The notes beneath the pieces are model-generated. The model ran no database searches, was not told the origin of the DNA, and was given only the letters and a program-made list of their open reading frames with translations. A stretch of 64,000 nucleotides of DNA, taken from the NCBI GenBank assembly GCA_048538215.1, contig JBLYPV010000001.1, positions 139,495 to 203,494 of the forward strand, in the 5' to 3' direction. Positions 31,598 to 44,751 of the stretch are shown piece after piece (within the stretch, counting starts at the first letter, position 1; each line of letters starts with the position of its first letter). The stretch comes from Patescibacteria group bacterium (GTDB taxonomy: Bacteria > Patescibacteriota > Minisyncoccia > Phycocordibacterales > GCA-2747955). Both the position numbers and the translations under genes were made by a program.

Positions 31598-31673
31598 GGT
31601 GCTGAGAGGCAGACTCGAACTGCCGACCCTTCGCTCTTCAGGCGAATGCTCTAGCCAACTGAGCTATCTCAGC
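31598..31673 (-). tRNA. tRNA-Phe (anticodon GAA)
   Basis: The reverse complement reads GCUGAGAUAGCUCAGUUGGCUAGAGC...UUCGC-CUGAAGA-GCGAA...GGUUCGAGUCUGCCUCUCAGCACC. The cloverleaf is consistent and the anticodon loop reads CU-GAA-GA. Confidence 0.85.
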
Positions 31674-40073: not shown

Positions 40074-40997
40074 ATGACTTATGATCTTATCATTATAGGC
40101 GGGGGGCCCGCTGCAGTTGCCGCAGCGGTATACGCTGCACGCAAAGGGCTTCATACTGCACTGATTACTGATTCTTTTGGTGGACAGTCTATTGTATCGC
40201 TTGATATTGAAAACTGGATTGGCGACCAGCATATCAGTGGCGAAGAATTGGCGGATAAATTAGAAGCGCATATCCGTGCTTATGAAAGCGATGATTTTCA
40301 TATTTTTACCGGAGAAAAAGCTCAATCAGTAAATAGAAATGATGATGGTAGCTTTGTTGTCACTACTAGCAAAGGAGAACACACTGCCCAAACAATTCTT
40401 GTCACCACGGGCTCTCATCGCAAGAAGCTACCTGTGGCTGGAGCTGATCAATTTGAACACAAAGGTATCACCTATTGTGCTTCTTGTGATGGCCCTTTCT
40501 TTACTGGCAAGGATGTTGTAGTGATTGGGGGTGGAAATGCTGGCTTTGAATCAGCCGCACAGCTACTTGCTTATACTAAATCAGTCACGCTCCTTCAGCG
40601 AAGTGAGAATTATCGAGCAGACGCAGTGACAGTAGAAAAGGTACTTGAACATCCAAATATGACAGGGCTAACAGGAGTGCATATCAAAGAAATCAGAGGC
40701 GACAAAATGGTAAACGAAATTGTATATGAAAAAGATGGTGAAGAGATAGTGCTTCCCACCGATGGTATTTTTGTAGAGATTGGCTCTATCCCTACCACTG
40801 GATTTGTGCAAGAAATAGTGGATTTAGATGAGCACAATAATATTGTTGTAGATCCAAAGACTCAGCGTACGACCACTACTGGCATATGGGCTGCAGGAGA
40901 TTGTACCGATGGGCTATATCACCAAAATAATATCGCTGCAGGTGATGCAGTGAAAGCTCTTGAGAATATTTATCTCTATCTCAAAGCTGGAAAATAA
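40074..40997 (+). CDS. trxB: Thioredoxin-disulfide reductase
   Basis: 'IIGGGPAAVAAAVYAARKG' is the FAD site. 'CASCDG' is the redox-active CxxC. 'GGGNAGFESAAQL' is the NADPH site. Confidence 0.9.
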   Translation: MTYDLIIIGGGPAAVAAAVYAARKGLHTALITDSFGGQSIVSLDIENWIGDQHISGEELADKLEAHIRAYESDDFHIFTGEKAQSVNRNDDGSFVVTTSKGEHTAQTILVTTGSHRKKLPVAGADQFEHKGITYCASCDGPFFTGKDVVVIGGGNAGFESAAQLLAYTKSVTLLQRSENYRADAVTVEKVLEHPNMTGLTGVHIKEIRGDKMVNEIVYEKDGEEIVLPTDGIFVEIGSIPTTGFVQEIVDLDEHNNIVVDPKTQRTTTTGIWAAGDCTDGLYHQNNIAAGDAVKALENIYLYLKAGK

Positions 40998-41081
40998 TTC
41001 TTTGTTTTTTTCGCTCCTTTGCTATAATGCCCACATAATTTTCGCAAGAGAATTGTTTCTGAGGTATGACCTTGGAAGCTC

Positions 41082-41153
41082 GGCCCCATCGTCTAACGGC
41101 TAGGACATCAGGTTCTCATCCTGGAAATCGGAGTTCGATTCTCCGTGGGGTCA
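41082..41153 (+). tRNA. tRNA-Glu (anticodon CUC)
   Basis: GGCCCCAUCGUCUAACGGCUAGGACAUCAGG-UUCUCAU-CCUGGAAAUCGGAGUUCGAUUCUCCGUGGGGUCA. The acceptor stem is 7 bp with a G-U pair and the T-loop is UUCGAUU. CCA is not encoded. Confidence 0.8.
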
Positions 41154-42670
41154 CAAAACGAGACTTCGTCTCGACTTAAGGAACGCGCCGAAGGCGCACA
41201 AGAAAAAGTAGAAGCCAAAATATGCCGTCGCGACGCGACGAATTGGGACGGGACGGGTGCGCCGAAGCGCGCGGATTTGTCACGAACCAAGGGGTTCGTT
41301 CCGACTTTTTTGACGAAGGCGGCGATTTCGGAGAAATCATAGCTGGAGGATAAAAAGGTGGCTTGTTTCGTATCTAAAATCCACTCACGCAGGGGTTCGA
41401 CCCAATTATTTCCTTGGCGGGCAAAATCTTTCTTTTCCTGCTTCAAAGTCAGTGTGGCGCGCATGATTTCGTCTTTCTTTTTAAGATACAAGTCTTTTGG
41501 TATATCGCCATCTAAGTAACTCTCCACCAGCTTATCCATGCGTGCTTCACTGGCTTTGATACTATCTGAAAGATTTTGCACACCACTTTGCGATGCAGTA
41601 CTTTCCGCTTTCTCCCATTCCTCCACTTTACCAAGCATGTATGCGGTATACGCATCGCAAAGCGAAATTGTGTGAAGCTGTTCCTTTAGTTGGTCAACGA
41701 GAACGTCCTCGCGTACATACCCTTGGGAGCATGACCCTTTCTTTTTTGTGCAACGATAATAGCGATACTTTCCTCCGCACTTGCCCGTAGCCCACTGCGC
41801 GGTGATCATGCTCCCACACTCACCACACTCGAAAATACCAACAAACGGAAAATCATGCCTCACTTTCCGCTTACGAGGACGTTCACGCTCGACCAATACC
41901 TTTTGGACAGCTTCAAACAATTTCGAGGAAATGACTGGAACAAAGCTTCCATCAAACCACTCACCATGATGACTAACGAAACCGAGGTACGCACGATTGG
42001 TCAGCATGCGTTTGATGGAAGCTTTGGCAAGTGGCGTTCCTTTACCAGTCGTTACACCGTGAAGCGCCAAAAAGTCGGCGAGCGATACTAGTCCATGTTT
42101 ACCTGTGGCGTACTCCTCAAAAGCACGCACAATAATCTTGCTATGGACTGGATGAGGTTCGATATTCCGCGTACGCGGATTATTCACATAGCCAAATGGT
42201 GCTTTTGTGAGCCACTCACCTCGCCGAACTTTTTGGCGCATCCCTCTCTTCACATTCTGCGTCAGATTGTCTGAATAGTATTTCGACTGACCGAACGCCA
42301 CTTGCAACATAAAGAGCCCCTGCGGGGTGGGTTCAAACCAAGATGTCGGAAAGCGTAAAGACGACAGCTTGCTCGTATCTACCGCGTAGATGATGCGCCC
42401 ACCATCAATACTGTTTCTCGCCAAACGGTCAGGATGCCACGCTAAAACCGCGCTTGCTTCTCCCGCTTCAATGCGCGTCATCATCTCTGCAAATTGCTCA
42501 CGACCGGGAGTCTTTGCGCTTTTCGACTCTTGAAACTCCTTTAGGATTTCAAGATTTTCTTTACGCGCAAATTCACGCAATTCAAAAAGTTGTGCCTCAA
42601 TAGACATGACCTGCTTATCATCATCTTCTTTTGATTTGCGAGCGTATAGAAAATATTTTGGTTTGGACAT
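41108..42670 (-). CDS. Large serine recombinase (resolvase-like catalytic domain, recombinase domain and zinc ribbon); start at internal 'MSKPKYFLYARKS'
   Basis: 'YARKSKEDDDKQVMSIEAQ' is the Ser catalytic motif. The middle recombinase domain is present. 'CGECGSMITAQW...YYRCTKKKGSC' is the zinc ribbon, and the C-terminus is a coiled-coil. The ORF 3' end runs through the left TIR into the tRNA-Glu 3' end. Confidence 0.85.
   Translation of the reverse strand: MSKPKYFLYARKSKEDDDKQVMSIEAQLFELREFARKENLEILKEFQESKSAKTPGREQFAEMMTRIEAGEASAVLAWHPDRLARNSIDGGRIIYAVDTSKLSSLRFPTSWFEPTPQGLFMLQVAFGQSKYYSDNLTQNVKRGMRQKVRRGEWLTKAPFGYVNNPRTRNIEPHPVHSKIIVRAFEEYATGKHGLVSLADFLALHGVTTGKGTPLAKASIKRMLTNRAYLGFVSHHGEWFDGSFVPVISSKLFEAVQKVLVERERPRKRKVRHDFPFVGIFECGECGSMITAQWATGKCGGKYRYYRCTKKKGSCSQGYVREDVLVDQLKEQLHTISLCDAYTAYMLGKVEEWEKAESTASQSGVQNLSDSIKASEARMDKLVESYLDGDIPKDLYLKKKDEIMRATLTLKQEKKDFARQGNNWVEPLREWILDTKQATFLSSSYDFSEIAAFVKKVGTNPLVRDKSARFGAPVPSQFVASRRHILASTFSCAPSARSLSRDEVSFCDPTENRTPISRMRT
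41151..41281. repeat. Left terminal inverted repeat of the recombinase element
   Basis: Aligns to the reverse complement of 42698-42828: a 17-bp perfect outer segment, a diverged middle with a shared CGCGCC-RAAGGCGC motif, and a 48-bp perfect inner core. Confidence 0.7.
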
Positions 42671-42697
42671 ATATAAAGGTTTTAGATACGAAACAAG

Positions 42698-42828
42698 GAC
42701 AAATCCGCGCGCTTCGGCGCACCCGTCCCGTCCCAATTCGTCGCGGAGCGACGAGGTATTTTGCCTGCCTGTTCTGCTCGCGCGCCTTTGGCGCGCTCGC
42801 TGACTTCGTTAGAAGTCTCGTTTTGTGA
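42698..42828. repeat. Right terminal inverted repeat of the recombinase element
   Basis: Reverse complement of 41151-41281 (see left TIR). Confidence 0.7.
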
Positions 42829-43175
42829 TGAATTACTACATGTTGCTCGAACCCATTTTGAACAATCGCGAAGCGATTGATCTTCGCACGCGCCGCGCGC
42901 GTTGTGGCTTTGAACCAAATCGTACGCTCCGATTGCGTGGTGATTCTGCGCGCCTCGCTGCCTCGCTCCTCCCCAGACCTTTCTAAAAGAAAGTAAGGAA
43001 ATTTTTTATTTTTACATGCACGCAGAGCAAGCATCCAAGGAGCGTTCAAGAGTCGCTACGCACGCAGAGCGTGCGATATAGTTCAAAGCCACCACGCGCT
43101 TCGCGCGTGCAAACTCAATCGCTTCGTGATGTGGAATAAGTTAGAGTAAAGGATATGATTTCATCACTAACATGG

Positions 43176-43205
43176 AAAAAGCCATACTAATGTATGGCTT
43201 TTTTC
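43176..43205. terminator. Bidirectional hairpin aaaaagccatac-taat-gtatggcttttt
   Basis: A perfect 12-bp stem with an A5/T6 flank lies immediately 3' of the DEAD-box helicase gene. Confidence 0.6.
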
Positions 43206-43241
43206 TATGTATAATGGCAAATATGATCAGATGCACCCTGC

Positions 43242-44468
43242 TTACTCCGCTACAAAAGTAAGCGCCTGGCCTCGCTCTGCCCCACGCCCGGTACGGCCAA
43301 TGCGGTGTACATAATCTTCAAAGGTAGAAGGTAAATCATAATTAATCACATGAGATACATTATCTACATGGATTCCTCGTGCTGCTACATCTGTAGCTAC
43401 AAGTACCCGCGAATCCCCTGCTTTGAATCGCTTGAGTGATCGCTGGCGCTGAGTATGATTTTTATTACCGTGAATTGATTCTGCTTTGATTCCACTATCA
43501 CATAATTGATTAGATAGATTCTCTACACTATGCTTCATAGCTCCAAAAATAATCACTCGACTAAAGTCATCCTGCTTAAGTAAATCAACCAGTACATCGT
43601 ATTTCGCATCCCGACCAAATCGCACTACATCTTGAGCAATGCTGTCTGTTACATCTTTTTTCTTGACCGAAATTGTAATTGGATTCTTCATAAAATCCCC
43701 AATTAGCTCCTTTGTCTTTCTATCCATGGTAGCTGAGAAGAAGAGATTCTGACGATTGTCTGTCAATTCACTTAAAATAGCTCGCATATCATGAATAAAG
43801 CCCATATCAAGCATTCTATCTGCTTCATCCAAGACTACGGAGTCAATTCGATCCACTGGGATCAAGCCCCGTGATTGCAAATCCTTTATCCGGCCTGGAG
43901 TACCAATTATAAATTGATTAGTTCTTCGTAAACCACGAATTTGTGGGCCGATGCTCGTACCTCCTACACATACGGTAGAAAAGTATCGAAAATATTTAGA
44001 TAGCAATCGTAATTCGCTATCTATTTGAATAGCAAGCTCACGAGTAGGAGTAAGGATGAGCGTAGTACCACGATGATTATGCTTGCGTCGCTCAATCAAA
44101 GGAATCAGGAAAGCAGCTGTCTTACCTGTACCTGTTTCGGCAACACCTACTATATCCTTGCCATCTAAAATAGCTGGAATTGCTTGATCTTGAATGGGTG
44201 ATGGTGTCTTTATCTGCATTTCTTCTAATGCTCGCTTAAGCTTGTCATCTATAACAAAATCAGCAAAAGCATGCTGGGGAGTATATACCTCCTCTACCGC
44301 TTCTGTAGGATTAGTATTAATAAATCGAGTAGGATCAAATGTAGGCATAGTTCTCTGTCTACCTCCTCGTCGATTAGATGAATATGAGCGTCTGTTCCCT
44401 CCCCCTCTCTGTGCATAGGCACCTCTTGAGGCATGCGGACGCACTCGTCGTTGTTGTGTTGTGTACAT
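43242..44468 (-). CDS. DEAD-box ATP-dependent RNA helicase with an Arg/Gly-rich N-terminus
   Basis: 'TPSPIQ' is the Q motif, 'AETGTGKTAAF' motif I, 'VLDEADRMLDMGF' motif II, 'SAT' motif III and 'HRIGRTGRG' motif VI. Confidence 0.9.
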   Translation of the reverse strand: MYTTQQRRVRPHASRGAYAQRGGGNRRSYSSNRRGGRQRTMPTFDPTRFINTNPTEAVEEVYTPQHAFADFVIDDKLKRALEEMQIKTPSPIQDQAIPAILDGKDIVGVAETGTGKTAAFLIPLIERRKHNHRGTTLILTPTRELAIQIDSELRLLSKYFRYFSTVCVGGTSIGPQIRGLRRTNQFIIGTPGRIKDLQSRGLIPVDRIDSVVLDEADRMLDMGFIHDMRAILSELTDNRQNLFFSATMDRKTKELIGDFMKNPITISVKKKDVTDSIAQDVVRFGRDAKYDVLVDLLKQDDFSRVIIFGAMKHSVENLSNQLCDSGIKAESIHGNKNHTQRQRSLKRFKAGDSRVLVATDVAARGIHVDNVSHVINYDLPSTFEDYVHRIGRTGRGAERGQALTFVAE

Positions 44469-44661: not shown

Positions 44662-44751
44662 TGGCGGAGGAGGAGGGATTCGAACCCTCGATGCGGGTTA
44701 GCGCATACTCGATTTCGAATCGAGCGCATTCAGCCTCTCTGCCACTCCTCC
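44662..44751 (-). tRNA. tRNA-Ser (anticodon CGA), long variable arm, CCA encoded
   Basis: The reverse complement reads GGAGGAGUGGCAGAGAGGCUGAAUGCG-CUCGA-UUCGAAA-UCGAG-UAUGCGCUAACCCGCAUC-GAGGGUUCGAAUCCCUCCUCCUCCGCCA. Confidence 0.8.

Follow-up and report, generated by a model that had tools for sequence, protein, structure and literature searches.

What kind of mobile element, if any, resides at the 3' end of a tRNA-Glu(CTC) gene in the genome of a Patescibacteria group bacterium (contig JBLYPV010000001.1)? In a 64,000-nucleotide stretch of this contig, hereafter called the window, this tRNA gene adjoins a gene for a large serine recombinase (LSR) that lies between two long inverted repeats. 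A preliminary description, made from the sequence of the window, viewed this segment either as a transposon-like unit bounded by terminal inverted repeats or as a self-contained invertible module. Comparison with related loci instead indicates that the segment is probably the recombinase half of an integrative element of ~2.0 kb (41151-43167), inserted by the LSR at the tRNA gene's 3' end.

The recombinase itself was correctly recognized in the preliminary description. Profile searches with the 520-amino-acid protein return matches to a resolvase domain with the catalytic serine (Resolvase, PF00239, 3.7e-23, residues 7-153), a recombinase domain (Recombinase, PF07508, 8.2e-12) and a zinc ribbon (Zn_ribbon_recom, PF13408, 3.2e-11). 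The LSR gene is the only gene of a foreign element at this tRNA, and the GC content of the element is raised relative to that of the host DNA (0.48-0.50 versus ~0.39), although the difference is moderate rather than the 'much higher' value initially described; the repeats alone reach 0.55-0.58. These repeats, which we call the left arm (41151-41281) and the right arm, or arm' (42698-42828), are inverted relative to each other and span 131 bp. Alignment reproduces the perfect 17-bp outer and 48-bp inner stretches noted earlier, separated by a diverged middle with two 9-nt indels; a 101-nt inner block is 84% complementary. The proposed search for further copies found a 46-nt core pattern of the arms exactly twice, against 0 occurrences expected, and the window holds a single copy of the element. 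As was also noted earlier, the open reading frame (ORF) of the LSR crosses the left arm into the tRNA, and its stop codon (41108) is located within the tRNA antisense strand. An additional perfect 18-bp repeat (41362-41379 and 42680-42697) indicates that the left copy corresponds to the right copy plus an 80-nt coding insertion (41282-41361). An Rfam scan of positions 40500-43500 returned no family besides tRNA.

Homologues of the LSR number more than 6000 at 67-94% identity, all named ones being from Patescibacteria, and 524 relatives reside in species-representative genomes. We compared the loci of 80 of these 524 together with about a dozen metagenome loci (~90, all from Patescibacteria metagenome-assembled genomes (MAGs) or metagenomes). 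In ~65 of the 80 loci, the LSR gene and a tRNA gene on the other strand meet at their 3' ends. The most common target is tRNA-Glu, followed by tRNA-Ser (several anticodons) and the tRNAs for Arg, Leu, Lys, Val, Ala and Gly. Several genomes carry two copies at different tRNAs, such as the closed genome CP060229.1 (L001 and L011). Most of the other loci are cut by a contig end or lie beside tRNA-like sequence that is not called by ARAGORN, with one exception (L049, see below). In two cases of an arm abutting such uncalled tRNA-like sequence (L020:5490-5520 and L029:5500-5530), the T-arm is damaged, and these sequences may be decayed or partial tRNA copies at the left attachment site, attL.

The related loci share a common order of parts: tRNA, a short core, an arm, the LSR gene, arm', the core again, a module that we call F_A, cargo, a second module (F_B), the core and the host flank. 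The core corresponds to the last 3-7 nt of the tRNA, and the 4-6 nt ahead of arm' always match the end of the tRNA at the other side. Arms of 130-145 bp are universal in the family and are mostly 98-100% identical within an element (for example 131/131, 134/134 and 140/140), which makes the 84% of the window copy exceptional. Beyond the right-hand arm, every related locus carries the F module (18 loci aligned), composed of GC-rich hairpins, an invariant GTTCG.GC motif and a -35/-10-like pair, followed by 4-6 nt of the tRNA end. A second, inverted copy of F is found 1.1-3.4 kb further out in at least 14 loci, where it is 98-100% identical over 150-270 bp. The three junctions (tRNA/arm, F_A/arm' and F_B/flank) in 14 loci share just the 3-7-nt core, such as TCAC(AAA), CCGCA or GCACA. 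Unoccupied tRNAs in the same genomes are not accompanied by F. At L049, F, core and arm are intact on both sides of the LSR gene, and to judge from its sequence this arrangement is the un-integrated configuration.

Two further observations concern the F module. A solo F-hairpin remnant in reverse orientation is present ~30 nt past an otherwise unoccupied tRNA-Ser(CGA) (L051:2171-2290), with neither arm nor recombinase, and looks like the scar of a lost element. At L013, a run of masked N residues interrupts the F region (columns ~104-157 of alignment A2) in the stored genome record.

The same modules can be recognized in the window (Table 1), where conserved element sequence continues past 42828 as far as 43167. 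Comparing tRNA loci among relatives, as the preliminary description had suggested for defining boundaries, thus places the end of the unit at the core of F_B (~41151-43167, ~2.0 kb) and not at 42828. Nor do the arms form the terminal inverted repeats of an insertion sequence (IS)-like unit, because F lies beyond the right repeat in every related locus and because F_B, accompanied by a short direct repeat of the tRNA end, constitutes the far boundary in at least 14 loci and in the window. F_A and F_B of the window are collinear up to the same TCAC and are identical at 120/151 positions, and F_B is without the GGTTCG motif. On the host side, the sequence after the F_B core begins with TAACATGG and leads into a hairpin (43176-43203) that probably served tRNA-Glu and a convergent helicase gene as terminator before the insertion displaced it. 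The other two tRNA genes of the window, Phe-GAA (31598-31673) and Ser-CGA (44662-44751), are unoccupied. A classic terminator hairpin lies a few nt past the 3' end of tRNA-Phe, and the predicted pre-insertion tRNA-Glu site therefore resembles a normal tRNA locus. In other genomes, the family often inserts at tRNA-Ser(CGA).

Table 1. Features of the tRNA-Glu(CTC) locus in the window. Attachment-site roles are those proposed in the text.
Feature	Position	Strand	Basis and remarks
tRNA-Glu(CTC)	41082-41154 (3' end called 41153/4)	+	ARAGORN; Rfam RF00005, 56.6 bits
LSR ORF, 520 amino acids	ATG 42670 to stop 41108	-	Pfam domains
Core TCAC at putative attL	41151-41154		Last nt of tRNA; same 4 nt at 42825-42828 (as GTGA) and 43164-43167
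Left arm	41151-41281		Inverted-repeat alignment; encodes last ~45 LSR codons; proposed P' side of attL
80-nt coding segment, no 5'-side copy	41282-41361	-	Encodes conserved ATFLSSS..VGTNPLVR
Inner inverted repeat, coding copy	41362-41379		Perfect 18 bp; codons I-L-D-T-K-Q
Inner inverted repeat, 5' leader copy	42680-42697		Perfect 18 bp; stops 9 nt upstream of ATG
Right arm'	42698-42828		Inverted-repeat alignment; intact; proposed P' side of internal inverted attP copy
Module F_A	42829-42947	-	Proposed P side of internal attP; GGTTCG motif, -35/-10-like site facing LSR, GC-rich hairpins
Spacer, 101 nt	42948-43048		Occupies place of 1.1-3.4 kb cargo in relatives
Module F_B	43049-43167	+	Inverted degenerate F copy; ends TCAC (43164-43167) against host DNA; proposed attR
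Host hairpin AAAAAGCCATAC-TAAT-GTATGGCTTTTT	43176-43203		Perfect 12-bp inverted repeat, 8 nt past F_B core

From this arrangement we infer a scheme for integration. The mobile unit would reach from the tRNA end as far as the F_B core. In its free form, the element would have an attachment site (attP) made up of F, core and arm, and the host site (attB) would combine the tRNA 3' end with the core and the trailer of the tRNA, with the 3' part of tRNA-Glu(CTC) as the proposed B half of attB. Integration would then generate attL (tRNA-core-arm, 41151-41281) and attR (F_B-core-flank, ending at 43167), and a crossover inside the last 3-7 nt of the tRNA would leave the tRNA intact. A second complete attP, inverted and located inside the element, would be formed by F_A, core and arm' (42698-42947), and its presence would account for the 'terminal inverted repeats' of the preliminary description. 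The promoter-like site in F_A appears to aim through arm' at the LSR gene, and arm' would double as the 5' leader of this gene. The internal attP would likely serve in two ways, by allowing the LSR gene to keep its own promoter after integration and by allowing the LSR to bind its own promoter region. The predicted empty-site junction is ...CCGTGGGGTCAC/TAACATGGAAAAAGCC (GGGTCAC/TAACATGG) and the predicted circle junction is ...GGATATGATTTCATCAC/AAAACGAGACTTCGTCTCG, where the slash marks the point of joining. In contrast, boundaries at 41151 and 42828 only would predict an empty site of tRNA/TGAATTAC.

The position of one short motif is consistent with these site assignments. GTTCG is part of the T-loop in the tRNA and is invariant in F, and at the junctions its start is located 28 nt before the core end in F versus 22 nt in the tRNA, which is an outward offset of 6 bp. 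In attB sites, the zinc-domain motif lies 5 bp closer to the centre than it does in attP (Rutherford et al., PMC3783163), and the 6-bp offset resembles this property of serine integrases. By this analogy, GTTCG would be the zinc-domain motif, and universal T-loop recognition would then explain how one family acts at many tRNAs, with core nucleotides that match each target. The locus also has the hallmarks of a tRNA-associated genomic island, namely insertion at the tRNA 3' end, an adjacent recombinase and an intact tRNA.

Several results weigh against the proposed scheme. At the window locus, whose host is without a close database relative, neither an empty site nor a circular junction or excision product was seen. 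A scan for dyad symmetry around the core produced a weak signal (9.1/28 matches versus ~6-7 at other offsets) and does not fix the crossover dinucleotide. Conservation of the attP-like sequence extends over ~400 bp versus the 40-50 bp needed by known serine integrases, an excess that the scheme leaves unexplained. No candidate for a recombination directionality factor (RDF) was found in the window; a gene for an XRE-type helix-turn-helix (HTH) protein often lies beside F_A in relatives, and nothing ties it to directionality. A promoter scan of the window's own F_A called nothing, and its -10 sequence (TAGTAA) is poor; in L041 and L005, the scan did call promoter-like sites at the corresponding position, with 10/12 matches and with their ends 2-5 nt ahead of the core. 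Lastly, ~98% of loci use the attP copy at the 3' end of the LSR gene, a preference that the scheme would not explain if the two copies are identical.

Assembly quality affects how the related loci can be read. Perfect repeats break short-read assemblies, and copy number and orientation in MAGs are therefore unreliable. Approximately 35 of the 80 contigs (among L006-L080) end 100-300 nt upstream of the LSR start, within arm' or F_A. An assembly artefact as the source of the repeats themselves was ruled out, as the same architecture is present in a closed genome and across many assemblers.

The presence of near-identical repeats in inverted orientation would suit the self-contained invertible module put forward in the preliminary description. 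The LSR, or homologous recombination, would flip the segment from arm to arm' and thereby toggle the LSR gene between its own promoter in F_A and read-through from the tRNA, so that inversion would be the purpose of the repeats. The available evidence favors this model only weakly, and we regard it as unlikely. The half-site make-up is the same in both sites, concerted evolution of the repeats implies physical interaction of the copies, and two contigs, L002 (92% amino acid identity) and L090, have the opposite arrangement, in which tRNA, arm and LSR start are on the same strand. However, these are just two of ~90 loci (~98% are in one orientation), and a metagenome-wide pattern scan for the opposite orientation gave a single match, L090. 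Moreover, the second arm should begin at precisely the point where each of these contigs stops, and an assembly artefact is therefore possible; either inversion or integration via the other attP copy could have produced them as real variants, or they could reflect assembler choices within the repeat. The HTH gene is beside F_A in all 8 loci with such a gene, which argues against frequent flipping. Known serine integrases recombine only attP with attB, or attL with attR when an RDF is present, and recombination of an attL-type with an attP-type site is not known for them (PMC3783163). The inversion model also leaves F and its second copy unexplained.

A still smaller chance, and a very slim one, attaches to an IS-like transposon, that is, a 1.68-kb unit (41151-42828) with 131-bp terminal inverted repeats that is moved by the LSR acting as a TnpX/IS607-like serine transposase. 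Such a unit would have inverted ends and a single gene, as seen here, and many metagenome contigs of 1.6-2.0 kb carry this unit alone. However, contigs of this length are the expected assembler output when a perfect inverted repeat exceeds the k-mer. F invariably comes after the right repeat, the left is followed by a tRNA or, in L049, by F, and the three-way junctions put the outer boundary at F_B. No insertion away from tRNA 3' ends was seen in the loci examined (~65/80 at a called tRNA). Thus, neither of two properties of a transposon, inverted repeats as both termini and insertion at many unrelated sites, was found. We favor integration by attP-attB recombination, with the outer boundary at the core of F_B.

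This conclusion does not by itself reveal why the repeats are maintained. The attP copies are near-identical within an element and strongly different between elements. One possibility, to which we give less than even weight, is that the repeat serves single-strand pairing, either in an mRNA panhandle that joins the 5' leader with the 3' coding end or in a hairpin of single-stranded DNA. In the panhandle version, the start region would be hidden unless ribosomes cross the arm, and integration as outlined above would still apply. This model draws on the inner repeat, whose 18-24 nt in the 5' leader co-vary with LSR codons ~1.3 kb away (~60 loci) despite a gap of 81-94 unrepeated nt between inner repeat and arm that exists on the coding side only. 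The co-varying codons, 431-437, specify W-I-L-D-x-K-Q/K, and the variants are amino-acid-changing (T, M, S, L, I; Q or K). Likewise in favor of pairing, the LSR frame is open through the arm in 59/59 loci, compared with 63% and 37% for the other frames, and it always stops in or beyond the tRNA antisense in these loci. Codon-position entropies in the arm (0.87/0.63/1.06 and 1.21/0.90/1.29) give a weak coding-like signal, drawn from only 9 sequences.

Hairpins in the arms add to the case for pairing. In a per-sequence census, perfect hairpins of at least 6 bp occur 1.56 times per arm versus 0.12 in shuffles, and the main hairpin is located 35-65 nt from the core, with stem sequences that differ between elements. 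The terminator-like hairpins of the arms point outward, which is also compatible with this model. On the other side, RNAalifold found almost no consensus structure in 23 aligned arms, because the hairpins are out of register in the sequence alignment. F_A is located upstream of where the transcript is predicted to start, and F_B falls outside the transcript, yet both are as identical as the arms. A homogenizing process at the DNA level must therefore operate, and this process could also explain the inner repeat.

In the window, the terminator-like hairpins are located at 41150-41173, 41215-41241, 42737-42765 and 42802-42826, and T-runs accompany them only when they are read outward from the LSR gene. 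On the LSR sense strand, arm hairpins come ahead of the stop codon in the tRNA antisense, and a transcript ending there would thus be without a stop codon.

A related proposal, which we advance tentatively, is that the inverted duplication of attP plus promoter has a function of its own, one specific to this Patescibacteria family; the identity of the copies is preserved inside each element, and the duplication takes in the co-evolving 18-24-nt leader segment. Such a device could possibly control recombinase expression or directionality through an mRNA panhandle that is opened by translation through the arm. Other possibilities are a C-terminal tail that differs in sequence between the integrated and the free element, and a two-site design through which the element could integrate or invert in either orientation. 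Each of these options might replace the separate directionality factor of known serine integrases.

The features of the protein agree with its assignment as an LSR. Residues R11 and S13, which form the Arg-x-Ser catalytic motif, are invariant in 24 homologues, as are C282, C285, C307 and C314 of the zinc ribbon in the homologue alignment, where invariant residues reach K465. An AlphaFold model contains helices at 339-386 and 392-419 with predicted local distance difference test (pLDDT) values of up to 85, which suggests that the long helices (339-419) form a coiled coil. The model as a whole is poor (mean pLDDT 52), too poor for a fold search. With 520 amino acids, the protein belongs to the large type of serine recombinase and does not have the form of the small invertases (~190 amino acids with a C-terminal HTH). 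Among solved structures, the SPbeta integrase comes closest to it (E 1.7e-11), and an IS607 model gave only 25.6 bits on the catalytic domain. The best NCBIfam similarity is to CcrB (NF047343), but membership in this equivalog was rejected because the score of 98.3 bits is far under the cut-off of 900. Phage integrases in the collection are at most 29% identical to the LSR, a search of IMG/VR found no LSR relatives, and an exact-protein look-up of the window LSR returned no identical record.

The absence of cargo that was originally noted holds for the window copy, in which a 101-nt spacer separates F_A from F_B, but not for its relatives. There, cargo of 1.1-3.4 kb or more lies between the recombinase and the far site, as in tRNA-associated islands, and varies from locus to locus. 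The HTH gene beside F_A occurs in at least 8 loci. Other cargo genes encode a beta-helix/PKD surface protein, a Panacea-domain antitoxin, a GTP cyclohydrolase II-methyltransferase fusion, a deaminase, GrpB, an ABC transporter, an aromatic amino acid lyase, a DpnII-type restriction-modification set and an M78 peptidase with DUF4411. Defence-type genes of this kind are present on the far side of two close relatives, L081 (719-3500; a DpnII-like restriction-modification set and an HTH gene) and L086 (1294-4740; an HTH gene, an M78 peptidase and DUF4411). No second copy of F was found in the 3.5-5 kb upstream of the LSR gene at these two loci, and the defence-type genes there are either cargo or neighbouring DNA.

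Relatives of the LSR in other assemblies are 87-94% identical to it, whereas the adjacent host DEAD-box helicase (43242-44468) has matches of at most 73% among 5.8 billion proteins. This contrast points to recent horizontal spread. An empty-site search via the helicase gene obtained no empty site; its nearest relatives, at 73% identity, are not syntenic. The left arm and gene body of the window copy are closest to the L089 lineage (91-96%) and the right arm and adjoining DNA to L088 (90-92%), and the window copy is therefore a recombinant (mosaic) of two lineages. We conclude that this copy is cargo-less and decaying with an intact LSR gene. Given the lost cargo, the recombinant origin and the decayed outer F_B, it is probably poorly mobile or immobile.

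Comparison with known systems helps to place the family. The serine integrases of phages and prophages (phiC31, Bxb1, A118/LI and SprA of SPbeta) have the same resolvase, recombinase and zinc-ribbon domains and, as far as the low-confidence model shows, long helices, and SprA is the best match of solved structure. As with phage integrases, the proposed attL and attR have a short putative crossover core in common, and the outer motif shared by the two kinds of site is placed further out in attP than in attB. The present family differs from these integrases in sequence (at most 29% identity, none in IMG/VR) and in the size of the element (2-5 kb without phage genes). Its target is the extreme 3' end of many tRNAs, its attP shows ~400 bp of conservation and is present as an inverted duplicate, and no RDF was found. 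The recombinases CcrA, CcrB and CcrC of staphylococcal cassette chromosome (SCC) elements likewise are LSRs that insert small-to-medium cargo cassettes at a conserved housekeeping gene, again at its 3' end. However, the target here is a tRNA and not rlmH, a single recombinase is present, and attP is duplicated in inverted orientation. Genomic islands and tycheposons that target tRNAs similarly have a recombinase by the tRNA 3' end, variable cargo and short direct repeats at their ends, but rely mainly on tyrosine recombinases and contain a duplicate of a tRNA 3' segment, whereas the tRNA duplication here is limited to 3-7 nt.

Long inverted repeats with recombinase sites are known from the yeast 2-micron plasmid, a replicating plasmid in which FLP, a tyrosine recombinase, acts on FRT sites within 599-bp inverted repeats with proven, frequent inversion. 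The free form of the present element would likewise be a circle split in two by long identical inverted repeats, each with a recombinase site. Unlike the 2-micron plasmid, the element has no replication gene and one isomer predominates. The Hin, Gin and Cin invertases also combine a serine recombinase gene with inverted copies of its own site. These are small serine recombinases that use 26-bp sites plus an enhancer and flip a promoter or tail-fibre segment, whereas the present enzyme is an LSR for which dual orientation is only putative. Serine transposases such as IS607 TnpA and Tn4451 TnpX similarly move small elements, but insertions of the present family are confined to tRNA 3' ends and its repeats are not termini.

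A literature search found no description of this LSR family, nor one of a serine-integrase element whose attP is duplicated in inverted orientation, and no described serine-integrase counterpart of its duplicated, co-evolving attP/promoter architecture was found in the searchable literature. LSR elements of this kind apparently are a large, undescribed family of tRNA-targeting serine-integrase mini-elements. A groundwater metatranscriptome study reported highly expressed 'ccrB'-like recombinase genes in Patescibacteria (PMC9938205), and these may belong to the same LSR family.

Patescibacteria (candidate phyla radiation, CPR) have tiny genomes, and gene exchange among them is little understood. 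The family is present in hundreds of species-level genomes and in thousands of metagenome proteins, with cargo classes that include restriction-modification, parts of toxin-antitoxin systems, transporters, surface proteins and enzymes, and it may be a major vehicle of gene flux in this group. It also represents a compact serine-integrase system that appears to be aimed at the T-loop and the acceptor end of tRNA genes, both universally conserved, with specificity apparently set by a few core nucleotides, and this is of interest for integrase engineering. The interest of the element is mainly at the family level, where the duplicated, co-evolving architecture of attachment site and promoter is an unusual trait of a serine-integrase family.

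One additional short motif, AGAAAG(G)TAAGGAAATTTTT, is found repeatedly where F has its outer edge. It is located upstream of F_A in L001, L003, L034 and L047, and in the window it is found at 42985-43003, where it is oriented with F_B and not with F_A.

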